From: Mollicutes bacterium Phil14
Lineage (GTDB): Bacteria > Bacillota_I > Bacilli_A > ML615J-28 > CAG-698
Direction: 5' to 3'
Assembly (NCBI GenBank): GCA_001940985.1
Contig: MSHB01000022.1
Location: 35,393-99,392, forward strand
DNA: 64,000 nucleotides
Shown here piece after piece: positions 215-24,773 of this stretch; position 1 is the stretch's first letter, and every line of letters begins with the position of its first letter. The notes under the pieces are model-generated. The model was given only the letters and a program-made list of their open reading frames with translations, was not told the origin of the DNA and did no database searches. A program made the translations under genes and the position numbers.

Positions 215-1336
215 CTATTTTTTCTTTATTAATTTGCTTTTTTCTTTGTATAATTTCTTATCAGCGCATTCTAAAAATTTTGCTATATCCATTGCATCTT
301 CAAATTTAGAATAACCAATACTTACTTTTAAATCATACTCTTTTTCAGTTGCCATCATAGCAATTTTATCTTTAACATACTCAACAAATTCTTTAACCTT
401 TACTTCATCATCATAGCGACATATGATTACAAATTCATCTCCACCAACTCTTGCTGCATAAACCTTCTTTTCATGTTCTACTTCTTTTAGTGCATCAGCA
501 ACTATGCATAAAACTTTATCACCAACAGTATGCCCATATGTATCATTTATCATTTTAAAATCATCAATATCTAAATATAAGGCATATAGTATTTGATTTG
601 AATTCTTGTGTTTATGGGTAGAAGTTTGATAATCTAAAAAGTTAAGTAAATCAAACCTATTATTCAAATTTGTCAAATAATCTTTAGTTATCTTTTGATT
701 TTGAATTTCAATAAATATACTCATTATCGAAAGTGTAGCACCTATTGCAATAAGTGGGATTCCTTTTAAGAATACTTGTGCTAATCCAAATGCAATAGGA
801 TATATTGCAAATTTAGAAACGCTTCTTGCTTTAATTCTCACTGTATAACTTTTATTTCTAGAAAAAGAAAGATTTCTAATTGATGCAAGTATCATATATC
901 CAAATGTAATTAGAGGTTGAAGAAAATAAAAATCACCTCTTTGATAGCAATTGTTTTCATCAAGGACATATATAATTTTATCAGAAAATGAAAGAAAAAT
1001 TAATATTAATGCTGGTATAAAAGTGATAAAATACCTTATCTTTTTTTGAAAGAATTTTGTATTTAAGAAAATTTCTGAGTATACCAACCAAGTATATGCA
1101 AATACACCTGATGTGGCAAAATATAGGGAGCAACATAAATATACTATAGTTCTATATTTTGTACCATTAAAAATTTTCCAAACGATATCAGAACCAAAGA
1201 AGGACATCATCATTATGAAAACAATATTTAAAACTTTTCTATCTTCTAACTTTTCATGGCTAAACACTTTAATAAACATTAAAAATGATATTGCCATACA
1301 AAAGGCATTTATCTCAATATAAAGTAGTTTTTCCAT
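215..1336 (-). CDS. Membrane-anchored diguanylate cyclase (multi-TM N-terminal domain plus GGDEF domain).
   Basis: 373-aa ORF with about six predicted hydrophobic helices. The C-terminal domain carries an intact RVGGDEF motif (YAARVGGDEFVIICRY) and the upstream DxDxFKxINDxxGH motif typical of GGDEF cyclases. Confidence 0.85.
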   Translation of the reverse strand: MEKLLYIEINAFCMAISFLMFIKVFSHEKLEDRKVLNIVFIMMMSFFGSDIVWKIFNGTKYRTIVYLCCSLYFATSGVFAYTWLVYSEIFLNTKFFQKKIRYFITFIPALILIFLSFSDKIIYVLDENNCYQRGDFYFLQPLITFGYMILASIRNLSFSRNKSYTVRIKARSVSKFAIYPIAFGLAQVFLKGIPLIAIGATLSIMSIFIEIQNQKITKDYLTNLNNRFDLLNFLDYQTSTHKHKNSNQILYALYLDIDDFKMINDTYGHTVGDKVLCIVADALKEVEHEKKVYAARVGGDEFVIICRYDDEVKVKEFVEYVKDKIAMMATEKEYDLKVSIGYSKFEDAMDIAKFLECADKKLYKEKSKLIKKK

Positions 1337-4245: not shown

Positions 4246-4274
4246 ATTATACCACATTAAATATTTAATTTGAA
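4246..4274 (-). promoter_or_regulatory. Sigma-A-type promoter for the GH4/BadF/maf/GGDEF gene string (TTCAAA, 17 nt, TGgTATAAT).
   Basis: Minus-strand sequence gTTCAAAttaaatatttaatgTGgTATAAT about 35 nt upstream of the GH4 ATG. An AAAAGGAGAAAG ribosome-binding site follows. Confidence 0.5.
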
Positions 4275-4288
4275 CATAAATGTATATT

Positions 4289-4321
4289 TTTTAAAAAAAG
4301 ATGACCATAAAGGCCATCTAA
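4289..4321 (-). terminator. Rho-independent terminator after the 2549-aa gene.
   Basis: Minus-strand hairpin AGAUGGCC-UUUAU-GGUCAUCU with one mismatch, followed by UUUUUUUAAAAAA. It lies directly 3' of the stop at 4327. Confidence 0.6.
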
Positions 4322-4326: not shown

Positions 4327-7300
4327 TTACTTATCCCAACTTATATCTTCATCAGTTAATCCCCAATTTCCACCTGATGTTTTTTCATTAACAACTAAAG
4401 CAAATTCTCTAATACGATTTTTTGTTGAACCACTAATAAAGTGATACTTACCATCATATTTATTATTTAAATCTAAATCATGAAGTTTATAAGAATCGCT
4501 ATTCCATCCATATGTTCCTTTAGAACCCGTCGCAAGATATATATCATATTCATATCTTCTTCCATTAATCAAAGTACCATTACTTTCACCTTTATATTTT
4601 GGAGTAATAGCCGTAAAACCATAGCATCCACTATAATTACGTCCAAACGAATACTGATATTTTGTTGCATCAATAGGATAATAAAACATTGACATTTGAT
4701 TATTCAAACCAGTAATATATTTTGTTATGCCTTCTTTATCAAGTTCACTTGCTTCATATGGATATATAATATGATTAGGATCATTTGGATCAATCGTAAC
4801 AGAATAATCAGCTAAATCACCTTGCAATTGATAATTTTTAATGGTAATAACTACTACTTGATTCTTGATTGGAGAACTAGGATCACTGCCCAATACAATA
4901 TTACCATTAGCAAAACGATAATAAATAGTAAATCTAATAGTTAAATTATATAATATATCGCTAGCAGTAATAAAATAATAAACTGTAGATTCTCCATCTT
5001 CAGAAACAATTTTATAAAGAATAACTGTATCTTTCTCTTCATCGTTACCAATAAAATCACCTTTCAATTCAGTTGACCAATTATTAGTATCACTACCATC
5101 CCAATTACTTCCAGTATATCTATATATACTAGAACCAATAGGATTCGTAAATGAAGGACTATAGTCATCTAAACTAATATTAGTAACTTTTCCATCAATT
5201 CTAAAATACCTAACATTATCATTATCAGCACCATCATAATCAATACCACCATAGTAAGTACGTGCATCATAGAGAGTATTGCTTATTTTATTTCCTAACA
5301 TATCTACTTCATATATATTAGGATATACTAAGGTAGTATCACTATCAAGTTGAAAATCTATATCTTCTAAATAAGCACTTTTACCAAGTAATTTATCTAT
5401 TACAATACTTAGCATTTCTTTTTCTTCACCATCACGAACCAAAATAAATTTATAACCTTTTGACCCTGGCTCTAATAATGAAGTAATATTAACAGAATAA
5501 TATGTTCCTATGTTCAAATAAATCTTAGATTTCATCTCTTCTTCATCAAAAACAATTTCATCAAGCAACATTTTAATTTGTCCATTTAATACTTCTCTGT
5601 CAATTTCAAATCCAAAATCAATATCAAATGTTGTTAGTAAATCCTCACGATAAACTATAAATGTAGTACCATATTGAATGTTATTATTTTTATAGACTAC
5701 TATGTTATCTGGTTCACGTTCAACAATTCTATGAACAATAGTATTAATACTACCTACTTCATTTTCAATTACATATGTCATTACATATTCTCTATTACCA
5801 TTAGTATATGTATAATACACACTTGTTTTAATTAATTTTGAAAATTCAGAAACATATATCCTTTCGATTTCAGTATCATCTATCTTTATTACGTAACTAT
5901 CTACATTATTTAAATATGATATCTCTTCTAGATTATTTATAGTTTCAATAGTTAAATCAATGCTGTTAGTCAAACCATATTTAACTTTAGAAAACATATA
6001 TCCAAATTGAATGTAAGTAATAAAATCTGTATCTTTTTCTTCAAGAAATTCTAAAATATTACCACTTATATCATAACTAAAAGTGTTATAAAAAACATTA
6101 GTAATATTATAATATTGAGATTTTTCTTTTGTTATAAATATAGAATAATCTTCTATTATATTATCATAGTAACGATATCTGATTTCATATTCCCCAGATA
6201 TTAACTTATTACTAAAGGAAATTGTGAAACCGAATTGCCTATTATTAAGTTTTACTATTTCTAATTTATAATAAGCACTATCTATCAAAGTATTTTCTCT
6301 GTATAATCCGATAACAGAAAGTTCATATTCACTTGCCAAAACACCATTATTATCAGTGAATAAACACTCTACTTTTCCATCTGGAGAAACATTATTCTTA
6401 ATAATATAACCATTTGTGATTGAATCCACTATGCTACTAGCACTATCAACAACAGCAGAAAAGTCTACTGATAACTCTTCACTTACACACTCAATAATAA
6501 TCTTATAATCTGTTACATATTTTTCAACTAGACTACTAACATTGCAAGCTATTTCAGAATATACACGTATTTTATCTTCAAATTCTAAACGAGAATTTTT
6601 AGTTAAAGTTCCAGATATACTTGCTTCATATATACCATCTAAAACATTACTACTTCTTAAGTTATAATAATTTCTAAAATCATGGTGTTCATTAGCAGTA
6701 ATACCATATTTAGCAATTACTGCATTTTCACTTAATACTGCACTTTTAACATAATAATTCAAATCAGTCTTATTATTAACAAAATTAAAAGCACTATTAG
6801 AAACAGTAAACGTGATTGTTGGTAAACCATACTCATCACTTCCAACAAGCCCTCCTCTTAAAATCGGAGAATTATTATTTTTATCATATAAAACTAAGTC
6901 ATATAAAGTAGAACCATTATCATCTTTTTGTTGGATCAAAGACTTATCACTATAACTAATTTGAAACATTGATTTATAATCTAATAACATTTCCTCAACG
7001 TTTAAACCACTATCTATTAAATCTTTAGAACTTACATTAGACAAATCAATATATTTTATTTCATCCTTCTCATTTAATTTATACAAATCATCAATTTTAA
7101 GATTTCCTGGTAATACATCACCAGCATCTCGACCTTTGGTTGTTGCTAAAACATACATGCCATTTGGTTTATAATTAAGTGATGTTTCATTTTTAAATCT
7201 ATCTGCTAATACATCATTACTAGCTGCATATATATAATTAGCTTGTTCTGAATCCATCAAAGGAAAACTATCACTGAATATATATGTTTTACTAGTATCA

Positions 7301-10300
7301 CTCTTATCATCGGTTACTATTTCAATTTGATATTGACTAATTGTAGAACTACTACTATTAGAACCAATACTTATATTATTTTGTAATAAACTAGCCACAT
7401 TACTAGGATTAGTTACAGTTGCTCTATTACTGCTATAATTTAAGTTAGATACACTAGTATTACCTGATACAACTACATTTCCATTAATAGTAGTATTTAG
7501 ACTAATAGTTTTATTATCTGAACTTTGTTTTTTTACAGTCCTTTGAACAGTTTCAGTTGCATAATTTGAAGTGTAATTGTTACCATTTATATTTTCGTTG
7601 TATGGTGCATATCTTCTTGTACTTGTAGTTATCTCTTCATATTCAAGTGAATCTAACGTAACTGAAGTAATTCTATACGTGTAGTTATTTCCCCAGAAAC
7701 TTCTTGTAATTGTAATAGATTTTATATCACTATCTGTTAAAGCATTTACTAATTCACTTGTAGTAGTACTTCCTGTAGTATAACCAACAACTAATGCTTG
7801 TGTTGTATCATTACTTCTTGCAGAATAATACGTATCTTCTTTTCCTGTTACTTTTAATCTATAAAATATATAAGCTCCATATGAAGAACCATCCACTCTA
7901 CCAATCATATCAACTTTAGAATCCATATTTAAAATATTCACAAAGTTATTTGATTGCATTACACCACTATTACCTCTTTGTAAACGTCCAAATATTCCTC
8001 CAAAACCACGTCTTGCATTAGGATATAATGACAAACTAACTGATTGGCTTGGAAAAATAAATGTGTTTTCATCTTTATAGATATAACTTGTATCACTTGA
8101 ATTATTCATATAATTGCTATTTGTGATATCTTTTAACACGGTATATGTAAAATTACTATAATTACTGTATTTAGCTGCTTTTACTTTTCCATAATGGATA
8201 GCAGTATCAATATTACAATATGTAATAGTAAGGTTACTTGTGTCTGCACTACCTAATACATATGTAGCTCCTACAATTCCACCAGCAACATCAGTTGAAA
8301 CAATAACTCCATGATTTAACATTCTAGTCATTATACATAATCCATATGATATTACTCCACCACTACAAGCAAAAATTCCTGGTCTACGACCTTGAGAAGT
8401 TCCACTGCCGTTGTTTTGGCCACTAGTAACACGAGTTCCATCTAAATTACCTATCTTATTTGAGATTGCGGTAATATTTCCAAAATTCAATCCATTTGAC
8501 AATTTACAATTAGCTATTCTATCGCCATTACCAACTGTGCACCAAGAAAATTTCTTTTGACCATTATTACTAGAATCAATTGATGCAGTTCCCGCGGTTA
8601 ATTCAACTCCCAAAGCAACAGCTAATATTCCACCACTTCTAACATATTGATTAGCTTTTCCTGATATATTACCATTGTTTGAAGAATCAACTATTTGCGC
8701 AGGCTCTACAACTTCATCACTATAACCAGCTAAAATTGTTGCACTAGTATCGGCCATTGCACTAACAACACCACCAAGTGCAAGTCCACCATTATATGCA
8801 AAAACTAATCCACCATATAAACAATTTGGTGTATCACCACCAGCTACATAAGTAGTACCACTACTTGAATTAATATATGTGATATCACCTGAATTAGCAC
8901 AATCTTGTATAAAGTTATAATTAAAAGTAACTATTCCTCCAACGAACGTATTGCACGTACCAATAATAGTTGCCCCATTACCATCATCAGAAGTTATATC
9001 AGCTCTATTCATAGAATTAGTGATTGAACCAACATTTAAATTAAATAATCCTGCTACATAAAGATTATTAGAATTAATAGTTGCCCTGAAACTAGTACTT
9101 GTTTGTGATGTTCCACTAACACCACTAATAGATGTATTCCCACTAATATTACTAGTTATAATCTTGCCTTCATTAATACAATTTATGGCTTTGTAAGTTT
9201 TATTATTTAAACTTGGTAAAATCCAAGATATCCCTGATATATATATATCTTTATTATTGCAAATTCCATTAACTATAATGTTACCACACATTGATACGTT
9301 TTTATAATCAACTTTATTAGCTAAAGTAATGCCTGCTACTTTCATTTCCCCATTGACGTTATTTTCGCCACCATCAATTGTAATATTACCATTGTTTTGA
9401 CAATACAACAATTCACATTCTTTATCATTAACAGACATAAAAAATGATGAGATATTAATACTTTCCACACTTTCATTAAAAAATGTAGAATCATATGTAT
9501 AAGAAGCTTCATTATAAGCTCTTGATAAAATAATACCATTACCATTATCTAATATTGTTGAACTATAATATATATTTCTGTTGTTATTATAACTATTATA
9601 GTTTTCTATTTCAAAACCAGCATTATTAATCATATAAGAAAAGCTAACTTTACTAATATCTGATGTATTTACTCCAATACCAGCTAAATAGTTTTTAGTA
9701 CTTGCGTTGTATTTACTAACAATAATACCATTATTTTCAAATCTACCGCTAATTAAATCACGATTATTTTTTGATATCTTAATTCCATTATTACTTTTTC
9801 CAAACACGCCACCAACATAAATATTAGCCGAAGCACTATTATCTATGGCTCCATTTATGCTACCATCATTTGTTAAGTAAAAATATTCATTGCTAGTTTC
9901 ACTATTATTATTCATATTACCAATAATGCCACCAGCGCAAATAACTACTTCATTTTCAGTAATGACATTGTTAATTGTTTTTATATTAGCATTGTTATAT
10001 GCATATTCAACTCTTAACCCCTTTTCACTACTTCCACCTATTATTCCACCATAATAATATTCTAAAGATGTATTATAATCTGTATAATTGTGCGTAGCAC
10101 TACCATCAATAGCACCATTAAGATTACAAACATAACTAATGTTACCACTTCCGTAGCCAACTATTCCTCCTATACAAGTTTTTCCTAAACCAGAATTACT
10201 AAAATCAAAATAATTAGTATTCTCATTAACTCTATTAGTAATATTTTTAATATTTCCAGAACTCAAATATGCACTAACTATACCAGCATATATCACTTTT

Positions 10301-11976
10301 CCATAATCACTATTATCACCAACTAAAGAAATAGTTGAGTCTATAAAATTAATATTTTTAATTGTTCCCTTGTTTATACCTACTAATCCATAATACACTT
10401 CTTTTTCTGTATAGTGAGAAGTAGTAATATTTAAATTCAATATACACTTATTATTATTGGTATTTGAATCTAAAGAAAAATCATCATCTCCACCTTTTAA
10501 AACTCCTTTAAATTCCGTTTTAGGAGTAGGATAATTAACATTTTTCATATCTATGTTATTATTTAAAACATATGTATGTTCATTAAATTGCTTTCCATAT
10601 GTTTTGCTTTTTAAAGATAAAAGTTTTGAAAATGTAATTAAATCAATATCTTTCTTTATCAAGTAACAATTATTACTTTCATCATATTCTAATCCAAAAA
10701 TTTGAGGCAAACTATCGCTTGCATAGAAATGCCATATTCTCTCATCATTTATTCCCTTTGAACTTAAGCTTACACTATTAATGTTTATATTTTCACCAGT
10801 AGTTATTTTTTCACTACTATATGCGCTTATTCCCAAAACATCAAGATTATCAGTACTAATCAAATCATCGTTATAGCAAACCCCACTAATCTCCCCACTG
10901 TTTTCGCAGACAATAGGATAACTTTTAAATAAATAACTTGAACCACTACTTACTACCCTTTGACTAATGTAATAGGAATTATAAATCTTACCTGTTTTGT
11001 TATTTTTATTTACTAAACCACTAGCATAAAATGTTTGTGTTTGTACTGCTCCTAATTGCAAATTCCAAATAATACCTGAATCATCCAAAGATACACCTGA
11101 ACTAATTTTAGTGCGTTTATCTATAACTGCAGTATTATAAACTAATCCATTATTTTCTCCAACCAAAATTGATGTATTAGTTAATCCATCAGGAATATCT
11201 AATAATTCAAAAATAGGATTTTCAATTATTAAATTGCAAATTATTCCACTTTCACCAACACTTGCAAACATTGAATAATAGTTATTAAGTGCAATATCTA
11301 CTTCTGTACTTTGATCATCTTGATTAAATCTGTAAATCATTGATATATAGTCATATCCAGCCAAATATAAATTCTTTATTTTAAAACCATTACCATCAAA
11401 ACTTCCCGTGAATGGATAATAGTTTCTAGTTTTTTCTTCATCAGGAGTAATAAAATCAATTCCTAATGGAATAAATTGTTTTGACTTCATTTTCGAATAA
11501 TCAATATCATTTATTAAACAATAATTAAAACTTAAAATTGTTTTTATTGTTTTTAAATTTGGATAAATATTAGCTGTTGCTTTATTTTTCCAATTATAAC
11601 AAGCATCAACTGATAGATAGTATAACTCTTCAGGAGTTGATATCGTTACTCGTTTGTCTAAAACAAACTCATTTATTTCATCACTCATTTTTTCATCTCT
11701 AACTGAAGATGATAAAGATGAATCATTCATATACTTCTCAATTATATTATGAATACTATTGTAATCTACCATCTTTTCACTACTAGTAGATTCACTATTA
11801 ATTAAAGCATTAAAAAAAGAAAAATCATTACTAAATTTACTATCAGCAGATACTTTTATGCTATTACCTTTATCAATGAATACACATAAAAATATAAAAA
11901 CAATGATGATAAAAGTTAACAATAATCCTAAACTTTTCTTTGAAATATTTTTAAAATTCATATTAGCACCTACCAA
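4327..11976 (-). CDS. Giant (2549 aa) N-terminally anchored or secreted surface protein. It is rich in Ser/Thr/Asn/Gly and has many G-G-(I/V)-(V/I)-G-type repeats. Putative beta-helical adhesin or matrix protein.
   Basis: Uninterrupted 7.65-kb ORF with an N-terminal hydrophobic signal or anchor (LGLLLTFIIIVFIFLCVF). It has dozens of motifs such as VAGGIVG, CIGGIVGYGSG, YYGGIIGGSS, CAGGIIGN and YVGGVFG. There is no LPxTG motif and no C-terminal TM. Its start overlaps the stop of the upstream TasA-like gene by 7 nt, indicating co-transcription. Confidence 0.8.
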   Translation of the reverse strand: MVGANMNFKNISKKSLGLLLTFIIIVFIFLCVFIDKGNSIKVSADSKFSNDFSFFNALINSESTSSEKMVDYNSIHNIIEKYMNDSSLSSSVRDEKMSDEINEFVLDKRVTISTPEELYYLSVDACYNWKNKATANIYPNLKTIKTILSFNYCLINDIDYSKMKSKQFIPLGIDFITPDEEKTRNYYPFTGSFDGNGFKIKNLYLAGYDYISMIYRFNQDDQSTEVDIALNNYYSMFASVGESGIICNLIIENPIFELLDIPDGLTNTSILVGENNGLVYNTAVIDKRTKISSGVSLDDSGIIWNLQLGAVQTQTFYASGLVNKNNKTGKIYNSYYISQRVVSSGSSYLFKSYPIVCENSGEISGVCYNDDLISTDNLDVLGISAYSSEKITTGENININSVSLSSKGINDERIWHFYASDSLPQIFGLEYDESNNCYLIKKDIDLITFSKLLSLKSKTYGKQFNEHTYVLNNNIDMKNVNYPTPKTEFKGVLKGGDDDFSLDSNTNNNKCILNLNITTSHYTEKEVYYGLVGINKGTIKNINFIDSTISLVGDNSDYGKVIYAGIVSAYLSSGNIKNITNRVNENTNYFDFSNSGLGKTCIGGIVGYGSGNISYVCNLNGAIDGSATHNYTDYNTSLEYYYGGIIGGSSEKGLRVEYAYNNANIKTINNVITENEVVICAGGIIGNMNNNSETSNEYFYLTNDGSINGAIDNSASANIYVGGVFGKSNNGIKISKNNRDLISGRFENNGIIVSKYNASTKNYLAGIGVNTSDISKVSFSYMINNAGFEIENYNSYNNNRNIYYSSTILDNGNGIILSRAYNEASYTYDSTFFNESVESINISSFFMSVNDKECELLYCQNNGNITIDGGENNVNGEMKVAGITLANKVDYKNVSMCGNIIVNGICNNKDIYISGISWILPSLNNKTYKAINCINEGKIITSNISGNTSISGVSGTSQTSTSFRATINSNNLYVAGLFNLNVGSITNSMNRADITSDDGNGATIIGTCNTFVGGIVTFNYNFIQDCANSGDITYINSSSGTTYVAGGDTPNCLYGGLVFAYNGGLALGGVVSAMADTSATILAGYSDEVVEPAQIVDSSNNGNISGKANQYVRSGGILAVALGVELTAGTASIDSSNNGQKKFSWCTVGNGDRIANCKLSNGLNFGNITAISNKIGNLDGTRVTSGQNNGSGTSQGRRPGIFACSGGVISYGLCIMTRMLNHGVIVSTDVAGGIVGATYVLGSADTSNLTITYCNIDTAIHYGKVKAAKYSNYSNFTYTVLKDITNSNYMNNSSDTSYIYKDENTFIFPSQSVSLSLYPNARRGFGGIFGRLQRGNSGVMQSNNFVNILNMDSKVDMIGRVDGSSYGAYIFYRLKVTGKEDTYYSARSNDTTQALVVGYTTGSTTTSELVNALTDSDIKSITITRSFWGNNYTYRITSVTLDSLEYEEITTSTRRYAPYNENINGNNYTSNYATETVQRTVKKQSSDNKTISLNTTINGNVVVSGNTSVSNLNYSSNRATVTNPSNVASLLQNNISIGSNSSSSTISQYQIEIVTDDKSDTSKTYIFSDSFPLMDSEQANYIYAASNDVLADRFKNETSLNYKPNGMYVLATTKGRDAGDVLPGNLKIDDLYKLNEKDEIKYIDLSNVSSKDLIDSGLNVEEMLLDYKSMFQISYSDKSLIQQKDDNGSTLYDLVLYDKNNNSPILRGGLVGSDEYGLPTITFTVSNSAFNFVNNKTDLNYYVKSAVLSENAVIAKYGITANEHHDFRNYYNLRSSNVLDGIYEASISGTLTKNSRLEFEDKIRVYSEIACNVSSLVEKYVTDYKIIIECVSEELSVDFSAVVDSASSIVDSITNGYIIKNNVSPDGKVECLFTDNNGVLASEYELSVIGLYRENTLIDSAYYKLEIVKLNNRQFGFTISFSNKLISGEYEIRYRYYDNIIEDYSIFITKEKSQYYNITNVFYNTFSYDISGNILEFLEEKDTDFITYIQFGYMFSKVKYGLTNSIDLTIETINNLEEISYLNNVDSYVIKIDDTEIERIYVSEFSKLIKTSVYYTYTNGNREYVMTYVIENEVGSINTIVHRIVEREPDNIVVYKNNNIQYGTTFIVYREDLLTTFDIDFGFEIDREVLNGQIKMLLDEIVFDEEEMKSKIYLNIGTYYSVNITSLLEPGSKGYKFILVRDGEEKEMLSIVIDKLLGKSAYLEDIDFQLDSDTTLVYPNIYEVDMLGNKISNTLYDARTYYGGIDYDGADNDNVRYFRIDGKVTNISLDDYSPSFTNPIGSSIYRYTGSNWDGSDTNNWSTELKGDFIGNDEEKDTVILYKIVSEDGESTVYYFITASDILYNLTIRFTIYYRFANGNIVLGSDPSSPIKNQVVVITIKNYQLQGDLADYSVTIDPNDPNHIIYPYEASELDKEGITKYITGLNNQMSMFYYPIDATKYQYSFGRNYSGCYGFTAITPKYKGESNGTLINGRRYEYDIYLATGSKGTYGWNSDSYKLHDLDLNNKYDGKYHFISGSTKNRIREFALVVNEKTSGGNWGLTDEDISWDK

Positions 11977-12680
11977 TCAGTGTCCCAAGGGGTTTTTTCC
12001 AAATCCCAATTATTTTGTGCCCCATCATAATATTGTACTGCTTCGATAATAAATCCAATTTGAAGAAAATATCTACTATCTCTAGTACCAAACATTTTAT
12101 CCGAATAATATTCTTTAATTAAAGGAATTACTAAAGGAGAACTTTCATTAACTCTCTTTACTTTTTCCATACAATAAATAAAGCCATCTTTTTCTCTATT
12201 ATCATAAAATAGGCCACTACTAGATGATTTAAAATTATAATTAAAATCTGTATACCCATCTTGTACAACAGCTAATTCACGAGTAACATCTCCAGTTTTA
12301 TAAAGTAAAGTAAGCTGTTCATATGTAGCAACTCTAAAATATGTATCAACATCACTATATACTTCAACATCAACTCTAAAATTTTCAGCAAAATATATAT
12401 CATCACGAGCAGATATATTAATCTTCACAACTCCAGTTTTAGTAAAATCACTATCTCCTAAATCAGCAGTATAATAAACGGGATCATATATATTACCATC
12501 CTTTTCAAAATAGGTTTTTAATCTTACCTTAACAGTCCCAATGACATACTCTTTATTTTCATTAATTCTACTAGTAATATAAGCAACTGTAGTGCCTACA
12601 AATAGCAAAAAGAATAGTACAATAGCACCAAACATTACTGCCTTTTTAAATCTTAATTTATTTATAATCAAAACAGTCAC
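11970..12680 (-). CDS. Secreted protein with a SipW-cognate-type N-terminus (TasA/camelysin-like paralog).
   Basis: 236 aa. N-terminal basic region, hydrophobic helix, then GTTVAYITS (compare TasA GGGTWAAFND and CalY GGGTFAYFSD). Overlaps the giant gene start. Confidence 0.5.
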   Translation of the reverse strand: MTVLIINKLRFKKAVMFGAIVLFFLLFVGTTVAYITSRINENKEYVIGTVKVRLKTYFEKDGNIYDPVYYTADLGDSDFTKTGVVKINISARDDIYFAENFRVDVEVYSDVDTYFRVATYEQLTLLYKTGDVTRELAVVQDGYTDFNYNFKSSSSGLFYDNREKDGFIYCMEKVKRVNESSPLVIPLIKEYYSDKMFGTRDSRYFLQIGFIIEAVQYYDGAQNNWDLEKTPWDTDW

Positions 12681-12767
12681 TCCTTTCTAAAAACATAAAT
12701 GGGTATTGAAAAAAGCCAATACCCAACCAAACTCTTTAATTAAATAATTGTTAAATAGTATTGAGTA

Positions 12768-13268
12768 TCATTCATCCTTTTGATGTGTTTTTAACAATTT
12801 GTATAATGAATTAAACAAAATCACTAGTACAACAATTATTGCTATTGACAATATAACGAAAGGATTTCTAATAAAATTTATTATAAATCCTAATATAGGA
12901 ATTGAAAAAGCATATATACCTTTTACTTGGCTAGCCTTTATTGGGGCATCATTAGCACTATTTTCATCTATACCTTTAGTTATTATTATATCTTTTTCTT
13001 TATCATAACTAATAACTCGATGAGTAACTGCCTTTCCATCTTCTCTTTCATAAGTTATAATAGTATCATTTTTTATTACGTCATAAACATCACTTTCAGA
13101 AATCTTTTTATAATACATAAGCGAACCTGTATAAATACGTGGTTCCATACTACCTGAAAGTACAATTTTTGCGCGATAATTACATATGTATAATCCTAAA
13201 GAAAATACTATTATAACTGCAAAAAGTCCTATTAATATATATTCAACAATATTTATTACTTTTTTCAT
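12768..13268 (-). CDS. sipW: Signal peptidase I, SipW (ER/archaeal) type.
   Basis: 166 aa. N-terminal TM, catalytic Ser box VLSGSMEP (near-identical to the Bacillus subtilis SipW box), a His box (THRVIS) and a C-terminal TM anchor. Confidence 0.8.
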   Translation of the reverse strand: MKKVINIVEYILIGLFAVIIVFSLGLYICNYRAKIVLSGSMEPRIYTGSLMYYKKISESDVYDVIKNDTIITYEREDGKAVTHRVISYDKEKDIIITKGIDENSANDAPIKASQVKGIYAFSIPILGFIINFIRNPFVILSIAIIVVLVILFNSLYKLLKTHQKDE

Positions 13269-13278: not shown

Positions 13279-13881
13279 CTATTTTGCAAGCCCTGTTGTA
13301 AAATCAATATTTGCCATATTTTCCCATAAAACATATTCTGCTTGTTTTCCTTCAACTACAATAGTAATTGTATATGATTTCCCAGAATAATCATTTCCTA
13401 CTTTGCTTCCATCAAAAGTCATATTTACATTAAAATTTAAAACATCACCAACAGAAGGAACTGTAGCAGCACTAATATTAGCACTATCATCAGTTAATGA
13501 AGTAGGTTTTCCTTTATAATACCAGTAATCACCATCATTTACCCAATCAGAATTTTCATCAAAAGTTATTTCAACTATATCAGTTATTAAATCTGTTTTA
13601 TCTTTTTCAGTAACAGTTATTTTCACTCTTACGTTTGTAGCTACAGTTGATTTATTAGTAATAGTAATAGCATCAGCATTAAAAAGAGGTTGACCAGGTA
13701 CTACTATACTATCACTATTAATATTAAACTGACATTCGTAATTAACATCACCCATAACAAAGTTAATGTTTGAAGTCTTTGTGTCTGTTAACCATGCTAG
13801 AGTTGTTGCTACAAGACCAGCAAGCAAAACAACAATAGCACCACTTAAAAGTATAATTTTCTTTTTTAAATTCTTTTTCAT
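13279..13881 (-). CDS. TasA/camelysin-like secreted protein (SipW-cognate signal peptide).
   Basis: 200 aa. N-terminus ...LLAGLVATTLAWLTDTK. The C-terminal strand TIVVEGKQAEYVLWEN resembles the TasA C-terminal FSFEATQWNG. Confidence 0.6.
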   Translation of the reverse strand: MKKNLKKKIILLSGAIVVLLAGLVATTLAWLTDTKTSNINFVMGDVNYECQFNINSDSIVVPGQPLFNADAITITNKSTVATNVRVKITVTEKDKTDLITDIVEITFDENSDWVNDGDYWYYKGKPTSLTDDSANISAATVPSVGDVLNFNVNMTFDGSKVGNDYSGKSYTITIVVEGKQAEYVLWENMANIDFTTGLAK

Positions 13882-13892
13882 ATTTTTTCCTC

Positions 13893-14501
13893 CTAAGAAA
13901 TATCTATGGCAAAACCTAATTCATTCCATTCAACATAATCTTTTTGTTTTGCTTGAAAAGCTATTTTTATTATTAATTTTACATTTCTGTTTCCCATATT
14001 ACCATAGTTGTCACCATTAACACTTAAACTTTCTAGTACCGTGATACTTGTGCTTTCAGAACCCTTTATTACACTACCACTAATACTATCGCCATCAATA
14101 ATTCCACCATAATACCAACATCCTTTAAAATAAACCCAATCATCACCAATACTAGCTTTTATTTGTTGATTATTGGTATCATCAAATCCATTCCACTTCT
14201 CATTATCAATTGGACTATTTGCATCAGTAACAAATTGATAAAAAAGTTGAAACCTTATTTCAGAATCCACACTACTATGATTTGTTAGTATATATGGGTC
14301 ATTAATCAATGGTTTTTCAGGAACAATATAATCTTGTTCACATAAATTACCAACCAAATCATAACGAACTTCTCCACTAACAAAAACAATAGAGCTACTT
14401 CTTCTTAAAGAAATAAGCCATGCATATGAAGATGTGGCAAGCGTTATAGCTAAAATGAAAAGTGCTATTATGCTAATCAAACTTTTAGCATTTCTTTTCA
14501 T
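13893..14501 (-). CDS. TasA/camelysin-like secreted protein. It is the first gene downstream of c-di-GMP riboswitch copy A.
   Basis: The ORF track gives 13893..14534, but the first 11 codons would lie inside the riboswitch aptamer. An internal ATG at 14501-14499 is preceded by GGAGGA (MKRNAKSLISII...). N-terminus ...LAITLATSSYAWLISLRR. C-terminal IKIAFQAKQKDYVEWN. Confidence 0.6.
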   Translation of the reverse strand: MKRNAKSLISIIALFILAITLATSSYAWLISLRRSSSIVFVSGEVRYDLVGNLCEQDYIVPEKPLINDPYILTNHSSVDSEIRFQLFYQFVTDANSPIDNEKWNGFDDTNNQQIKASIGDDWVYFKGCWYYGGIIDGDSISGSVIKGSESTSITVLESLSVNGDNYGNMGNRNVKLIIKIAFQAKQKDYVEWNELGFAIDIS

Positions 14502-14502: not shown

Positions 14503-14600
14503 CAATCCTCCGTTTTCTGGCGACTGGCTGTCATACACTAATTAGCTTCAGACCCTATAGTTTTGCGTCATCACTTTTCAGTGATTTTGCCTTTTTCTTT
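14503..14600 (-). promoter_or_regulatory. c-di-GMP-I (GEMM) riboswitch, copy A.
   Basis: Minus-strand RNA AAGGCAAAAUCACUGAAAAGUGAUGACGCAAAACUAUAGGGUCUGAAGC...GACAGCCAGUCG. It has GGCAAA, a perfect 6-bp hairpin capped by a GAAA tetraloop, then GACGCAAAaCUAUAGGG (receptor-like). This matches the Vc2 pattern GGCAAACCAUUCGAAAGAGUGGGACGCAAAGCC. About 75% identical to copy B at 23141-23215. Confidence 0.8.
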
Positions 14601-15242
14601 TTTTATATCCTCAAGTATTTTTTTCCTGATTTTTTCTCTTTCTGCTTCAATAAATTTTTGTTTTTCTTCATCATTTTTCTTATTTTGACTAGCGATTTTT
14701 TCCTCTTTAACCGCTATAAACATTTTTCCTATTTCAATGATTAAAAGAAAGAAAAACAATAACATTAAAATTAAAAATATTAAACTTCTGTGATTTGCAA
14801 TTAAACCACCAATTTTAAACAGTGTTAAAACCTTAACAACTTTTCCCACATAATTTTCCTTAGTAACAAACTCTGTATCAAAAGTACTATTATTAACACC
14901 TTTCATAATAAACGAACCATCTAAATTAACATCAACAATTCTATGAACTATATATATCTTATTGCTTTTTGAATAATAAATAATATCATCACCAATTGTT
15001 AATTTTTCAAATGGCACTTCTTTTGAAAGAATGAAATCACCTTCATTTATTACAGGTTCCATTGAATCAGTTGGTACAACCGAATATATATAACCAAATA
15101 TTTTTGTAGGTTTGTTGTTTTTATAAGCATTAATTCCAACGATTATTATGGCAATAGCCAAAACAAACAATAAACAAGTAAATATCCCTAAGCATTTGCT
15201 GATGATACTTTTTACTTTAGGTTCTTTCATACTATTCACCAA
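14571..15242 (-). CDS. SipW-type signal peptidase I paralog with a C-terminal TM and a charged tail.
   Basis: 223 aa. N-terminal TM, VVPTDSMEPVINEGDFIL Ser box, IVHRIVDV His box, then a second TM (LIFLILMLLFFFLLII) and a K/E-rich tail. The last about 10 codons overlap the riboswitch A aptamer. Confidence 0.7.
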   Translation of the reverse strand: MVNSMKEPKVKSIISKCLGIFTCLLFVLAIAIIIVGINAYKNNKPTKIFGYIYSVVPTDSMEPVINEGDFILSKEVPFEKLTIGDDIIYYSKSNKIYIVHRIVDVNLDGSFIMKGVNNSTFDTEFVTKENYVGKVVKVLTLFKIGGLIANHRSLIFLILMLLFFFLLIIEIGKMFIAVKEEKIASQNKKNDEEKQKFIEAEREKIRKKILEDIKKEKGKITEK

Positions 15243-16017
15243 TACTATTATCTATTATCAAATTTTTAATAACTAATCTTTGATTAGAATAAAACCTGCC
15301 ATCAAAAGATATATCACTAGGAATAATATCTTGATATATACTAGGAAAAATGGGTTCTGGTTGAAACTTTACTGTAAAATATAGCACTACATTTTTGCCA
15401 GCTTCTAATTTAAAATCTTTTAGTAAATAATAATTAGTTAAATCCTCGCCTTCACTATTAATAGTGTTAAAGTATGTAAATTCAGGACTAATCATACTAT
15501 TAGTTGTAATCTTTTTCCATCCCCATTCCTCAATTTTTTCATCGCTTGGAACAGTGATTAATTCATTTTCTTTTTCTTTTATTTCTGTTTTATACGGAAC
15601 TTCAACAAGCAAATCGCATCTATAACTATATGAATATTGTATCTTTTCATAGGCATTTTGATAATCACTTGTAAAGACTCCATCATTAAATCTTTCAGAA
15701 TGCAAATCAGAAAAATAAACATTTAAATTACAAACATCTTTACTTGTATTAGAAAGTATCAAAAGAAATATATTCATCTCTCCTGGCATCGCTTTTTCAG
15801 CAGTATAAGTATCAGATTGAATAATATTGTTACCTATAACTTGTGAGAACTGATATTCATAACCGTTTTCTCCAACACTAGCCACAAAGCTAGCACTATT
15901 ACTTTTAACAGTTACAAACCAAGCATAACCAACACTAACAAAAGCTATTAAAGATAATATGCATGAAAACAAGGCCATTAAAAACATTTTATTTTTAAAC
16001 ATTTTTCTCATCACCAT
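15232..16017 (-). CDS. TasA/camelysin-like secreted protein (SipW-cognate N-terminus).
   Basis: 261 aa. N-terminus ...LIAFVSVGYAWFVTVKSN. Overlaps neighbours at both ends. Confidence 0.55.
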   Translation of the reverse strand: MVMRKMFKNKMFLMALFSCILSLIAFVSVGYAWFVTVKSNSASFVASVGENGYEYQFSQVIGNNIIQSDTYTAEKAMPGEMNIFLLILSNTSKDVCNLNVYFSDLHSERFNDGVFTSDYQNAYEKIQYSYSYRCDLLVEVPYKTEIKEKENELITVPSDEKIEEWGWKKITTNSMISPEFTYFNTINSEGEDLTNYYLLKDFKLEAGKNVVLYFTVKFQPEPIFPSIYQDIIPSDISFDGRFYSNQRLVIKNLIIDNSIGE

Positions 16018-18010
16018 TTTGGTCCTTATTCATTAGTTTAATTAATTTATCTTTATTTTTGCTTTTTTCTTCGTTAGCTTTTTCAATTTCTTTTTGTTTC
16101 AATTCTTTTCTAACTTTTTCTGTTTGTGAGCGAGATTTTTCTTTTTCTTTCAACTTAAATTCTTTAATTTTTTTATCTTGAATTTCTTTTTGTTTTAATT
16201 TCTTTTCTTTTTTAGCCTTTAAGATTTTATCTAAATTAGCTTTTTCCAAAGCAATAATATCATTAACTTTCTTTGAATGAGCAGCTTGCATTTCTTTAAT
16301 TTTTTGTTTAGTTCTTTCTTTTTCATTTTTACTAATTTCACGCATCTTCTCTTTCAAAGTATCATTTATTAGTTTAAGACTATTCTTTGAGTCTTCCTTA
16401 GCCTTAACAACCTTTATTTTTTTACCATCTAAAGTTACCACACTAGAAGTAGCTTTAGCCTTAGCTTTTTTGTATATATCTATTTCTTTATCTAAATTAT
16501 TCTTAACTTCAAAAATAGCATCTTCATTGGTTTTTCCTTCTAAACTTTTAATAAGTTTAGTACTGGCTTTAGCCATATCTTTATTAAGACGTTTCTCAAG
16601 TCGAATTGCATTGTTATAATCAACTTCTTTTACTTCTCTAATTATCTTAGCAATTTGAGCTTTCTTTTTCGTTTCATCAAACTCTTCTTTAGGATCAACA
16701 TCCTTAACAAGTCTTGTAAATATATCTTCGTCTTCTAATTCAAAATATGATTGATATAAAGCATTAGATATATTATTCACCATGCGAATTGCTTGCTTTA
16801 ATGCAACTTCATCACTTGATGCTGTTTTTTTAAATTCATCTATGTTTTTCTTAAACATATTTTTATATTGTTTTAAATAATATTCATTTATACTATTATC
16901 TTCCTTAGAAAGTACTTCTGGATTAGTGATGATATCATCTTCATTTTTCTTAATCTGTTTAGCACTTTTCTTAATTGTCTTTTCATCACTCTTACCATCA
17001 AACTTTGTCTTTCTAACTGATTCATTAGCCTCACTAGAAAGATAGGCAAGCATTGCTGTTTGATTAAATCCATGTTCTATTTTTTTATCTATTTTTTTGT
17101 TCTTTTCTTTTACTATCAAATCATATGCCAACTTATTATATTTATCTAAAAACAACCACAACATATAGCAATTTTTAAAATCAGGATTTTTCATAATAAT
17201 ATTTGTTTGCATAATTGGAGGATTAACTTTAGGGGCATTAATCAATTTCTTGTATAACTCGGAATTTTTATATGCCATTATCATACGATTTAATTTTTCA
17301 ACACGCTTTAGTAAATATAAATTATTTTTTTCGTTTTGACTATTAACAGTTTTCTTGATTACCACATCAACATTTATATTTACCGAAGCATTGTTAATGT
17401 TAAAGTCAGACGATATATTAACATGATTTTTGTTTGATGATAAAACATTATCTTTAATAACATTGTATCTGTTATTTACAAAAACAAACAATCTATCTAT
17501 CAATGTTTTAATAAATCTATTTTCATAAATTGAGAATTCTTGTTCCGCATAACTTGTTAAAATCTTTTTGGGAATTACGTAATTTCCATCTCTTACTTCT
17601 TTTACAAAATGTGTATGTGAAGCAAGATGTCTTACTGATTCAGAATTAATTTTCTTAGCCTTTTCAACAGGAACTATTTCTTGCTCATATCTGATTCCTG
17701 TTTTAGGAGTGTTTGCAATCTTATCAATACTTGGAAAATATGATTCTAATGTTTTTATCCATTCTTCATCAAAAACTTTTGTTTCAATAATATCTTTTTG
17801 ATATATAACTCTATCACCAGATAAATATGAATCATAGAAAAGTTTGGCAAAAGCACTATCCACTTCTAATTCATCTAAATTAGTAGAAACTGTCTCAAAA
17901 TATTCATCTATATCCAAATCATCTGAATTTAAATCTAAAGGAGTTGCCTCACTTTCTTCTTTTTCTTTTTCGTTAACAAAGATATCGTCCATAGCAACCT
18001 CCTTAAACAA
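15995..18010 (-). CDS. 671-aa acidic, coiled-coil protein. Partner of the adjacent McrB-family NTPase. Function unknown.
   Basis: Acidic N-terminus (DLNSDDLDIDEYFE), a central globular region and an extremely K/E-rich predicted coiled-coil C-terminal half. No signal peptide. It sits 6 nt downstream of the AAA_5 gene. Confidence 0.6.
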   Translation of the reverse strand: MFKEVAMDDIFVNEKEKEESEATPLDLNSDDLDIDEYFETVSTNLDELEVDSAFAKLFYDSYLSGDRVIYQKDIIETKVFDEEWIKTLESYFPSIDKIANTPKTGIRYEQEIVPVEKAKKINSESVRHLASHTHFVKEVRDGNYVIPKKILTSYAEQEFSIYENRFIKTLIDRLFVFVNNRYNVIKDNVLSSNKNHVNISSDFNINNASVNINVDVVIKKTVNSQNEKNNLYLLKRVEKLNRMIMAYKNSELYKKLINAPKVNPPIMQTNIIMKNPDFKNCYMLWLFLDKYNKLAYDLIVKEKNKKIDKKIEHGFNQTAMLAYLSSEANESVRKTKFDGKSDEKTIKKSAKQIKKNEDDIITNPEVLSKEDNSINEYYLKQYKNMFKKNIDEFKKTASSDEVALKQAIRMVNNISNALYQSYFELEDEDIFTRLVKDVDPKEEFDETKKKAQIAKIIREVKEVDYNNAIRLEKRLNKDMAKASTKLIKSLEGKTNEDAIFEVKNNLDKEIDIYKKAKAKATSSVVTLDGKKIKVVKAKEDSKNSLKLINDTLKEKMREISKNEKERTKQKIKEMQAAHSKKVNDIIALEKANLDKILKAKKEKKLKQKEIQDKKIKEFKLKEKEKSRSQTEKVRKELKQKEIEKANEEKSKNKDKLIKLMNKDQNGDEKNV

Positions 18011-18015
18011 AACAA

Positions 18016-19572
18016 TTAGCTATTTTTAATAAAATTTTGAATACAATTAATACTTTCTAAGCAAGTATTTTTACCAAACAATTTGTCAAGTAAAGTAATT
18101 AATTGATTTAATTCTTCATGTAAGAAACTTAAATTTAAAGTTTCAAATTTTCTTATAACTTTATATGCCAAAAAGTAATCTAAACCTTGAACATCAGTTC
18201 CACCACACGCTACATAAACTGGAACAAATGTATTAATTTGTTTCATAATACGATTACCAAAAGTTATCTTAAACTCTTTAGTAATAAATTCATCTAGTTT
18301 TTGAATCTTTTCCACTAATTTCGCATCAAGTGGATATGCTTTTATTCCTTCTTGAAAAAGGTGCTCCATATATTCATAATTCATATTAACATTTTCTGTG
18401 TATGGTGCATCAATTAATTCAGCACGGGCATCCATTTCAATAGTTGTTGCACGATCATAAACTTTATCAGTAATTGTAAATGTTGAATCATCACGGTTAG
18501 CTGTACCAACAAACCAAACATTTTGAGGAATCAATAATTTTCCATCAACTAGTTTCTTAGGATCATTTGCTAAAGTATCTGGAACCAAATCTATTTTCCA
18601 TTCATTCTTATCTGGCATTTCCATTATTGATAAAAACTCAGCAAAATAATACTCAATTCTAGCTAAATTCATTTCATCTAAAATAATGAAATTCATATCA
18701 TCGCGATAGCTAGTTTCATAAACAGCTTTCAAAAAATCAGTTTCATTAAACTTTTTAGTGAATTCATTCAAATATCCAATTAACTCAGTTCTATCTCTCC
18801 ATGAAGGTTGAACAGAACAAATTGCCGCATCGTTTTTAAAAAACTTTCCCATCGCATACGGTAAAGATGTTTTACCAGTACCAGATATACCTTGTAAAAT
18901 CAAAATTTTGCTTGTGGCAAGTCCAGCGAAATATGCTCTAATAACTTTTTTATCATAATACAAATGTAATTGTGACGCTGAAAAATTAATAAATCTATTA
19001 ACTAATTCTTGTAAATTAAGCATATCATCAGGTCCCATCATAATTGATGTAATCTTTGTTTTGTATTCTTCATCAACAGCACTAAGTTTAATAAATCTTA
19101 AATCGCTAACAACTTTTTTGTCTTTAGACATTTCATTAGTAAGATTTTCTTCATCACTTTTTTCAGAATAATTATTCACACCACCAAGACCTAAATTAGA
19201 AACCTTTAATGCTAAAATCTTATTCTTTTCATCAATCAATTCTGCAGTCTTAGTATTTAATTGTGATACTTCTTCTAATAAGTCATCTTTCTCTATTTCT
19301 CTTCTTACAAATCTAACATATCTTCTAAGAATTTGGAAAATTCTCAAACCTAAGAAAATAAAGAAAGCAACTATTATAAGCATTGTAATAATTTCACAAA
19401 TCCAATCAAGAGCATTAAACTCATTACTGCCATTGATTAAATCTTCAAAATAACTAACAATATCTTTAAAAAATGCATGAGAAAATGCCTCCCATAATCT
19501 TACAAAGAACATCTTGAAATTATAGAAAAATGTTCTTAAAAAACCTATGAAATACCTAGCGAAGTTTACCAT
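18016..19572 (-). CDS. Membrane-anchored McrB-family (AAA_5) GTPase/ATPase.
   Basis: 518 aa. N-terminal TM (ITMLIIVAFFIFLGLRIF). Walker A ILQGISGTGKTS. McrB-type Walker B with NxxD region FIILDEMNLARIEYYFAEFL (compare McrB IDEINRANxxxxFGEL). Sensor motif VWFVGTANRDDSTFTITDKVYDRATTIEM (compare McrB IIGTMNTADRS). Confidence 0.7.
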   Translation of the reverse strand: MVNFARYFIGFLRTFFYNFKMFFVRLWEAFSHAFFKDIVSYFEDLINGSNEFNALDWICEIITMLIIVAFFIFLGLRIFQILRRYVRFVRREIEKDDLLEEVSQLNTKTAELIDEKNKILALKVSNLGLGGVNNYSEKSDEENLTNEMSKDKKVVSDLRFIKLSAVDEEYKTKITSIMMGPDDMLNLQELVNRFINFSASQLHLYYDKKVIRAYFAGLATSKILILQGISGTGKTSLPYAMGKFFKNDAAICSVQPSWRDRTELIGYLNEFTKKFNETDFLKAVYETSYRDDMNFIILDEMNLARIEYYFAEFLSIMEMPDKNEWKIDLVPDTLANDPKKLVDGKLLIPQNVWFVGTANRDDSTFTITDKVYDRATTIEMDARAELIDAPYTENVNMNYEYMEHLFQEGIKAYPLDAKLVEKIQKLDEFITKEFKITFGNRIMKQINTFVPVYVACGGTDVQGLDYFLAYKVIRKFETLNLSFLHEELNQLITLLDKLFGKNTCLESINCIQNFIKNS

Positions 19573-20391: not shown

Positions 20392-20419
20392 ATTGTCCTC
20401 TTTCTAAAACGAAGTTTTA

Positions 20420-20454
20420 TGTATAACAGAGGCAATTAAATGCTTCTGTTATAC
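20420..20454 (-). promoter_or_regulatory. Intra-operon stem-loop (13-bp stem) between the TasA-like genes and the downstream SipW paralog.
   Basis: Minus-strand GUAUAACAGAAGC-AUUUAAUU-GCCUCUGUUAUAC with one mismatch. No U-tract follows, so it is a candidate partial terminator, attenuator or processing site. Confidence 0.35.
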
Positions 20455-20478
20455 ATATTTAATTTTTAAAATATTTTA

Positions 20479-21381: not shown

Positions 21382-21411
21382 TTCTCTTTTTTCCTTTCAA
21401 ATTTTTAATCA

Positions 21412-24753: not shown

Positions 24754-24773
24754 AACTTTTCTCCTTTTTGTAA

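Follow-up and report, generated by a model that had tools for sequence, protein, structure and literature searches.

A giant beta-helix and Ig-like protein of Acholeplasma-type Bacilli with an invariant TasA-like partner and associated c-di-GMP riboswitches

We analysed 64,000 nucleotides (nt) of contig MSHB01000022.1 (GCA_001940985.1, positions 35,393 to 99,392) from Mollicutes bacterium Phil14, hereafter the window, in which one minus-strand gene encodes a giant protein of 2,544 amino acids (aa). The giant represents an uncharacterised, lineage-restricted family that is encoded with an invariant TasA-like partner and probably gated at the RNA level by cyclic di-GMP (c-di-GMP). This combination is new, and a literature search found no paper linking TasA/SipW or c-di-GMP riboswitches with Acholeplasma, Mollicutes/Tenericutes or Izemoplasma. 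We favour, at a rough probability of 60%, the reading that the giant is a c-di-GMP-induced adhesin, the membrane-side anchor of a protein matrix, or both. An earlier note on this DNA had described a repeat-rich surface protein tied to SipW/TasA-like genes and to c-di-GMP. Both ties were borne out by the comparisons reported here, while the description of the protein itself needed revision in part.

The open reading frame (ORF) is unbroken on the minus strand from 11976 to 4327, as the note had stated, and comprises 2,549 aa if counted from TTG 11976. ATG 11961 is the likelier start: a Shine-Dalgarno sequence (SD), AGGTG, lies at 11971-11967 with a spacer of 5 nt (...TGG TAG GTG CTA ATA TGA AT...), and public gene calls use this ATG. 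The resulting coding sequence, 4327..11961, specifies 2,544 aa plus the stop and has full-length homologues. The overlap with the upstream TasA-like gene that the note had reported is therefore true of the TTG start; with the ATG, the stop codon of the upstream gene (TAG, 11972-11970) overlaps only the SD of the giant gene and not its coding sequence. An intrinsic terminator (4299..4319, minus strand, an 8-bp stem followed by T7) closes the transcription unit, and the next gene, for a GH4 glycosidase, has its own promoter (TTCAAA-17-TATAAT at 4274..4246), so that the giant gene is the last of its unit. The ORF does not depend on a single assembly. Of about 17 contigs read, 15 encode a 99% identical protein of 2,546 aa and two the exact 2,544-aa form; records of these intact forms come from four samples (ERZ27286953, ERR7738581, ERR7738268 and SRR30858907). 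Self-BLAST of the protein gave no off-diagonal matches, and Tandem Repeats Finder detected in the DNA only three trivial tandem repeats, nothing able to cause mis-assembly. The giant ORF is a real gene for a conserved, predicted surface protein.

N, S, I, G and Y are abundant in the protein. A hydropathy scan identified a single hydrophobic segment (aa ~15-40, with aa ~15-37 at 11851..11919, minus strand) that follows a Lys-rich n-region and precedes VSA|DS; there is no other transmembrane (TM) segment. The N-termini of 33 homologues are all Lys-rich with about 20 hydrophobic residues, none carries a SipW-type AWFT motif, and several have an AxA-like site after the hydrophobic segment. The N-terminal signal or anchor proposed earlier is thus present, and by its sequence it may be a Sec signal peptide or, if left uncleaved, a signal anchor. 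Motif, hydropathy and Pfam scans also agreed with the proposal that LPxTG, SLH and a C-terminal TM segment are lacking; the motif scan found no LPxT[GAS], NPxTG or LAxTG. The claim of "dozens" of GG(I/V)(V/I)G motifs did not survive counting, which gave 7 strict and 13 relaxed occurrences, four of them spaced 39-40 aa apart. "Repeat-rich" holds for the giant only in the sense of degenerate beta-helix rungs.

Sequence profiles say little about the giant. Pfam and NCBIfam searches with the whole protein (Pfam limit E<=0.1) and with eight overlapping pieces (E<=1) returned no match, and hence none of the GLUG, Big or pectate lyase domains that the note had proposed to look for, nor SLH, RTX or TPS domains. 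The GLUG (PF07581) and Peptidase_M26_N (PF05342) models miss the giant even at E=1 on the pieces; the weak tails of the family profile search do extend to proteins carrying these two domains. No Pfam match to a carbohydrate-active enzyme (CAZyme) or peptidase was obtained with the whole protein or the pieces, the giant has no HExxH motif and no Peptidase_M26_C match, and the family profile matched nothing at E<=1 among PDB sequences.

Structure prediction was more informative. An AlphaFold2 model of aa 95-1294, built on a 40-sequence alignment, shows a right-handed parallel beta-helix with a predicted local distance difference test score (pLDDT) of 87.8 and a predicted template modelling score of 0.78, in support of the beta-helix suggested earlier. 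The predicted helix spans about 1,300 residues (aa ~100-1400, 7762..11664, minus strand), with short beta-strands throughout and two cap-helix starts, at aa ~110 and ~440, and is the best-conserved part of the protein. Conserved motifs within it include PFTGxFDGxGFxIxNLYL, several GGIxG rungs, RGFGGIFGRLQRG and DMIGRxD, and an invariant charged block (R1326, Q1328, R1329, D1351, R1355, D1357 and D1385) lies at its end. The top Foldseek match in the PDB is the beta-helix of a putative immunoglobulin A1 (IgA1) protease, 3n6z (E 3e-3, probability 1.0). All later matches are weak (E>=0.2): they are IgA1 proteases proper, 7uvk and 6xjb (probability 0.57 for 6xjb), PL6/GH28 enzymes and the adhesins Ag43, EtpA, Hap and HxuA.

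Conservation is highest over aa 101-1400, collapses over aa 1401-1560 and is moderate from there to the C-terminus. The collapse coincides with a hypervariable insert (aa ~1401-1560, 7282..7761, minus strand) that is predicted to form long beta-hairpins and measures 90-185 aa in homologues; lying between the beta-helix and an immunoglobulin (Ig)-like rod, it is a possible target-facing region. A conserved mixed alpha/beta connector of lower model confidence (aa ~1561-1674, 6940..7281) leads to a row of Ig-like beta-sandwich domains, about seven by prediction (aa ~1675-2544, 4330..6939, both minus strand), which ends in WGLxDxxxSW; the model stops 50 aa short. The model of the C-terminal half has a pLDDT of 84.1 and gave 139 Foldseek matches at E<=1e-3, of which the 50 listed are tandem arrays of Ig-, cadherin- and Fn3-like beta-sandwiches. 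They include the Ig-like domains of PrgB and, as second-best match, the Sap S-layer protein of B. anthracis (9g93, E 3.7e-8).

A search of 5.8 billion proteins yielded 37 relatives of the giant, nearly all of 2,400-2,660 aa and with 28-99% identity, none with a relevant Pfam domain. A scan that took a single genome for each species confirmed 104 stretches coding for a relative, of which 80 loci were kept. In 59 of the 80 the relative is a single uninterrupted ORF of 2,233-2,904 aa; contig ends visibly truncate most of the rest. The hosts of these loci are A. laidlawii 8195, Paracholeplasma vituli, Mariniplasma, Candidatus Izemoplasmatales, Mycoplasmatota strain zrk2 and many metagenome-assembled genomes (MAGs) labelled "Bacilli/Bacillota". 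Full-length relatives occur in more than 100 species of Acholeplasmatales, Izemoplasmatales and Mariniplasma, A. laidlawii included. One MAG with a family member, OKU7 (locus L049), derives from a biofilm community attached to rock. No family member lies outside Acholeplasmatales/Izemoplasmatales-type Bacilli. Because this lineage includes the cultured wall-less A. laidlawii and P. vituli, in which an anchor to the wall could not function, the absence of wall anchors from the giant is no anomaly.

The gene directly upstream of the giant (11970..12671, minus strand) encodes 233 aa from TTG 12671, with a SipW-type signal at one end and NWDLEKTPWDTDW at the other. When the window's neighbouring genes were used as phmmer queries against all ORFs of the related loci, a homologue of this protein was found directly upstream of the giant in every one of the 71 loci that show the position, in all lineages. 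The first in-frame ATG of the giant falls within -10 to +20 nt of the partner's stop in 67 of these 71 loci, and the two genes are probably translationally coupled. The isolate strain zrk2 (CP076020.1) carries two such pairs (L018 and L069), one inside an Acholeplasma-type fibre cluster and the other as a minimal unit of riboswitch, pair and GGDEF/EAL genes.

Most of the 71 partner homologues show a SipW-type signal end (AWFT/AYLT, e.g. ...SSYAWFTG... or ...AGWLT...), which in the window copy reads VAYITS. Direct profile evidence for the superfamily is faint: Peptidase_M73 (PF12389) matched 2 of 35 members (6e-3), with no match above cutoff, and TIGR04088 and TIGR04090 each matched 1 of 35, below cutoff. 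An exhaustive profile search recovered 138 representatives only, the distant ones with faint signals of the BsaA family (TIGR04090). The link is instead transitive. An hhalign comparison of the partner with the cluster's family of 200-aa proteins gave 98.2% (E 3.7e-14) over 167 columns, nearly the full length; 8 of 27 members of the 200-aa family match Peptidase_M73 (best E 4e-7), and two of its three weak PDB profile matches (E 0.31-0.39) are to TasA (5of1/8aur), aligned on an ...F(E/Q)A.Q strand. Since the partner is homologous to a family that is itself linked to Peptidase_M73/TasA, its sequence places it as a divergent member of the TasA superfamily.

The giant and partner families share a C-terminal WGL-x(3-7)-W (WGLxDxxxSWxx-COOH and NWGLxxxPWGGxW-COOH, respectively), seen in the family alignments and located in the window at 4330..4390 and 11970..12010 (minus strand). 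It resembles the ...ATQW... strand of TasA (5of1) in the PDB alignment, a strand that presumably continues as NGL. Homology of the giant's C-terminal domain to the partner was considered and rejected, as full and trimmed profiles gave hhalign probabilities below 7%; the WGL..W element is an unexplained short motif.

In the window the pair closes a one-strand, gap-free cluster of 19 kb that runs from 23243 down to 4299 with all intergenic gaps below 100 nt. Promoter and aptamer B come first, followed by the genes for three proteins with SipW-type signals (232, 329 and 300 aa) and for SipW copy B. Next are those for a P-loop protein of 518 aa, a DUF2357 protein of 671 aa, a TasA-like protein of 261 aa and SipW copy A2. 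After aptamer A come two TasA-like genes (about 200 aa each), SipW copy A, a hairpin, the partner and, last, the giant. Archaeal-type (SipW-type) signal peptidase I was recognised by TIGR02228 (cutoff 51.85) in copy A (12768..13268, 78.9 bits) and copy A2 (14571..15242, 81.4 bits). Copy B (19600..20391) was assigned by homology across loci. The 261-aa TasA-like gene lies at 15232..16017, and the three larger proteins with SipW-type signals occupy, together with copy B, 19600..23080. The two genes of 200 and ~202 aa (13279..14501) belong to the TasA/camelysin superfamily (TIGR04088, 20.2 bits, cutoff 19). All of these are on the minus strand.

Two c-di-GMP-I riboswitch aptamers (GEMM-I, RF01051, gathering score 35) were identified on the same strand. 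Aptamer A (14516..14601, 70.5 bits) shares its first nucleotides with the final codons of the sipW upstream and stops 5 nt short of the following gene's SD, which can pair weakly with the aptamer tail; it has no terminator behind it. Aptamer B (23135..23208, 62.6 bits) lies just behind the perfect-consensus promoter TTGACA-17-TATAAT (23215..23243) that heads the cluster. GGDEF/EAL genes flank the unit on both sides: two GGDEF-EAL proteins of 490 and 857 aa are encoded directly upstream of the cluster (23281..27347) and a 373-aa GGDEF protein four genes downstream of the giant (215..1336), all on the minus strand.

These associations extend to the related loci. Rfam detected aptamers in 4 of 5 test loci, and a covariance model then built from eight aptamers gave 69 matches in the 80 related loci plus the window, all on the gene strand. 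An aptamer precedes the pair in 45 of 71 loci. Twenty-seven of the 71, mostly Izemoplasmatales, have it directly before the partner, so that riboswitch, partner and giant form a self-contained unit; in 14 Mariniplasma-type loci it is ~750-850 nt upstream, often as two or three in tandem; and in four it lies farther upstream with fibre genes between, as in the window. In the Mariniplasma type, two or three tandem c-di-GMP-I aptamers ~120 nt apart stand before the clusters, with a single or double further copy ~750-850 nt before the partner; the tandem loci are L020, L022, L025, L033, L044, L050 (e.g. 47-373), L052, L056 and L081. In Izemoplasmatales the giant is followed by two adjacent GGDEF/EAL ORFs (e.g. 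L013 16971-21067), both matching the window's 490-aa protein, the one of the window's two that served as query; the ORF sizes are similar to those of the window's two. This adjacency suggests a conserved local c-di-GMP circuit, possibly with feedback.

The folding of the leaders bears on the direction of control. Behind aptamer B the 5' arm of the terminator (GCCAGUUAUCUC) contains the 3' strand of the aptamer's P3, so a ligand-stabilised aptamer would exclude the terminator, which forms in the minimum-energy fold of the unliganded leader. In the Izemoplasmatales leaders the 3' tail of the aptamer, UGCCGUUGUCUU, is the common 5' arm of two nested terminators, both of which form by default. The expression platform in these loci (L013, L014, L028, L065, L068 etc.) occupies ~100 nt after the aptamer, where the tail closes either the proximal terminator or a larger distal one that encloses an A/U-rich hairpin made from the U-tract of the first. 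For Izemoplasmatales the ON/OFF call stays provisional because the aptamer's P1 helix is not confidently assigned. The predicted folds of all three leader arrangements, including that of aptamer A, fit switches that would most likely be ON at high c-di-GMP.

The note had made the giant the terminal gene of the operon of riboswitch A. It is terminal; its membership of that operon demands read-through, for a terminator-like hairpin with a T-run (12700..12725, minus strand, -15.4 kcal/mol, z -3.3, followed by TTTATGTTTTT) sits between sipW copy A and the partner, 20 nt before the partner's SD. As this leaves no room downstream for a promoter, every transcript that reaches the pair must pass through it. 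A relative with 46% identity (L004) lacks the hairpin, and its sipW and partner genes overlap. The window's hairpin is probably an attenuator that would hold the giant at a low level compared with the fibre subunits.

The architecture of the giant, its lack of an enzyme signature, its obligatory TasA-like partner and the conserved association with riboswitches and GGDEF/EAL genes point to an adhesin and/or matrix anchor. The rock-attached origin of OKU7 and the GGDEF/EAL proteins of wall-less A. laidlawii agree with this. On this reading the N-terminal hydrophobic segment would carry the giant across the membrane, or hold it there, and outward from the membrane would follow the ~1,300-residue beta-helix, the hypervariable beta-hairpin insert and the rod of about seven Ig-like domains. 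The giant would be made together with the small TasA-superfamily partner encoded immediately upstream, and c-di-GMP would switch production through class-I riboswitches, most likely ON at high concentration. The 19-kb cluster would supply TasA-like fibre subunits and three SipW-type signal peptidases as well. In cells unable to use a peptidoglycan wall, the giant may thus serve as wall-anchored adhesins and TapA serve Bacillus. Surface retention, adhesive function and contact with fibres would be properties of such a protein; its retention by TasA-like fibres, helped by the invariant pairing with a TasA-superfamily protein, has some plausibility.

Several observations weigh against this reading. 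The giant has no recognised adhesin, lectin or ligand-binding domain, so that "adhesin" rests on architecture and regulation, and beta-helices also carry polysaccharide lyases and hydrolases, which are present among the weaker fold matches. The N-terminal segment may be cleaved at the AxA-like sites, in which case the giant would be released. Profile comparison detects no homology between partner and giant. Co-transcription with riboswitch A needs read-through of the hairpin ahead of the pair, the covariance model scan found A. laidlawii-type loci to be without a riboswitch, and the choice of ON over OFF derives from predicted folding geometry. Finally, the window host carries Ddl-like and MurF-like genes and may not be wall-less.

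A more specific proposal, tentative and in our view rather unlikely, is that giant and partner are dedicated to anchoring SipW-dependent fibres in the membrane and to nucleating them, in bacteria with no wall that could hold them. The N-terminus of the giant would sit in the membrane, the partner would dock on the distal Ig-like end (the WGL..W motif closes both proteins), TasA-like fibres would grow from there, and c-di-GMP would set the number of anchors. If so, the conserved membrane P-loop/DUF2357 pair encoded in the cluster would also be part of the assembly machine.

We think it doubtful, and somewhat more so, that the giant is a surface-bound or secreted enzyme, a beta-helix lyase or hydrolase or a protease scaffold on an Ig-like spacer rod that digests host or microbial polymers. 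Its fold matches do include PL6 alginate lyases, GH28, GH110 and inulin lyases, the dense invariant charged block R1326-D1385 at the end of the beta-helix could be read in this sense, and Acholeplasma MAGs have been described as polymer scavengers. However, those fold matches all have E>0.1, and the sole match of probability 1.0, 3n6z, is a putative IgA1 protease of unproven activity. The lack of any Pfam CAZyme or peptidase match and of HExxH also argues against an enzyme, and c-di-GMP control and a TasA-like partner suit matrix or adhesion better.

It is improbable that the giant is instead a structural coat, an S-layer- or glycocalyx-like cover that protects a naked membrane and is no specific adhesin. 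The Sap match of the C-terminal half and the conservation of so large a protein across a lineage known as wall-less would agree with a coat. The riboswitch and the attenuating hairpin, however, argue for conditional low-level expression rather than constitutive abundance, and the hypervariable insert suggests target-facing diversification. Similarly small is the chance that the giant is a released FHA/EtpA-like exoprotein, a bridging adhesin or contact-dependent effector acting alone, with TasA/SipW merely co-regulated. The beta-helix matches include EtpA, HxuA, Hap and Ag43, several homologues have AxA-like cleavage sites after the hydrophobic segment, and the Izemoplasmatales pair has no adjacent fibre genes, all of which would suit release; but the giant lacks a TPS domain, a toxin-like C-terminus and any Pfam match, and its partner is TasA-like and never absent.

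An origin of the long ORF from faulty assembly or annotation, or from pseudogene decay, can be dismissed as negligibly probable: one NCBI genome, GCA_021628625.1, does carry the gene in pieces of 59-540 aa, but it is the single such genome and all neighbouring genes in it are equally fragmented, which marks an error-rich assembly rather than decay. Intact copies are present in a number of independent assemblies and in 59 species-level loci of relatives, and the gene holds no DNA repeats prone to mis-assembly. The artefact or interruption that, according to the note, would have overturned the observation is not seen.

The 518-aa P-loop and 671-aa DUF2357 genes of the cluster (15995..19572, minus strand) are conserved within it. 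Inspected visually, the 518-aa protein looks McrB-like, with a hydrophobic segment at the N-terminus, a GTGKT P-loop and a DEMNLA box; Pfam and NCBIfam gave no match to it. An inserted McrBC-like defence island was rejected as an explanation of 15995..19572, since the pair occupies exactly the same cluster position in all Acholeplasmataceae and Mariniplasma loci (E ~1e-200 and ~1e-100). The two genes have the look of domesticated McrBC-like NTPases that are part of the cluster. Where the last of the large TasA-like genes gives way to sipW copy B, a near-perfect palindrome (20418..20457, 17-bp stem) may act as another internal attenuator or as a hairpin that stabilises the mRNA. Elsewhere in the window, a T-box leader (58739..58952, minus strand, 104.8 bits) stands upstream of two genes, the first at 57679..58701 and the second, 55276..57669, being pheT for the phenylalanyl-tRNA synthetase beta chain; a 645-aa protein (60662..62599, minus strand) has a weak match to MXAN_6640-type HExxH metalloproteases.

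The window also bears on the envelope of its host. A Ddl-like gene (228 bits, cutoff 246) adjoins a gene for a MurF-like ligase (199 bits, cutoff 289), both just below the curated cutoffs, and an LtaS-like protein with a sulfatase domain is encoded as well; these genes lie at 33918..36694 and 41601..43703 (minus strand). Such genes would not be expected in a lineage taken to be wall-less. Some genomes placed in Acholeplasmatales/Izemoplasmatales retain peptidoglycan genes (PMC12786226). Given this and the Ddl- and MurF-like genes, the window host cannot be assumed to be wall-less. A. laidlawii is wall-less (PMC2408644), and because the giant family is intact there, its retention cannot depend on a wall.

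Walled bacteria have been the subject of much work on c-di-GMP signalling, TasA-type matrix fibres and giant adhesins; there is hardly any knowledge of how wall-less Bacilli that are free-living or live in the gut, such as Acholeplasma, Izemoplasma and Mariniplasma, attach and form biofilms. The 14 GGDEF/EAL proteins of A. laidlawii lack a known output, and the locus described here would supply a concrete, conserved one. In many species the riboswitch-gated unit of giant and partner is embedded in a large SipW/TasA cluster, which raises the question of how a protein fibre or adhesin is held on a cell that has only a membrane. Experiments are feasible at least in A. laidlawii, because it is cultured and holds an intact orthologue (L006).

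Among known systems, the cluster resembles tapA-sipW-tasA of B. subtilis in that a dedicated SipW-type peptidase is encoded beside substrates with an A-W/Y-F/L-T-D signal end, in the reach of the 200-aa family to Peptidase_M73 and, among weak PDB matches, to TasA, and in having a non-fibre accessory protein in the same unit. TapA, however, is small and cell-wall-based, whereas the accessory protein here is a 2,544-aa protein of predicted beta-helix and Ig-like domains; SipW is encoded three times in the window cluster, beside about seven TasA-like genes, and the lineage includes wall-less species. B. subtilis is not known to have a c-di-GMP riboswitch, and a literature search found no paper combining the terms. 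The sipW-bsaABCRSD operon of C. perfringens encodes a SipW-dependent BsaA polymer and accessory extracellular proteins, is sortase-independent and lacks LPXTG (PMC7395162). The faint TIGR04090 (BsaA family) signals in relatives of the partner, far below cutoff, are a further likeness; unlike the present cluster, the C. perfringens operon is controlled by a two-component system and by temperature, and has no riboswitch and no giant protein.

The N-domain of M26 IgA1 proteases and GLUG proteins resemble the giant through the best fold match of aa 95-1294, the FxGxFDGxGxxIxNL start motif and the GGIxG rungs. The giant differs in that it has no M26 catalytic domain, no HExxH and no GLUG or M26_N Pfam match.

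Regulation finds its closest counterparts elsewhere. In Firmicutes, c-di-GMP riboswitches control C. difficile CD2831/CD3246 and pilA1 and B. thuringiensis Cap, and high c-di-GMP favours attachment; the products are sortase/LPXTG-anchored proteins of collagen-binding type or type IV pili. There, as here, a c-di-GMP riboswitch leads the gene for a large surface adhesin, which the giant would be; the giant differs in lacking LPXTG and a C-terminal TM segment, in its folds, and in its obligatory TasA-like partner. LapA of Pseudomonas, a type I secretion/RTX substrate, stays lodged in a pore of the outer membrane until the LapG protease frees it; c-di-GMP controls its retention at the surface. Control in the present system would act at the RNA level, with no outer membrane and no RTX repeats; like LapA, the protein is giant, largely built of predicted Ig-like domains and possibly held at the cell by its N-terminal end, and c-di-GMP would decide whether it is present at the surface.

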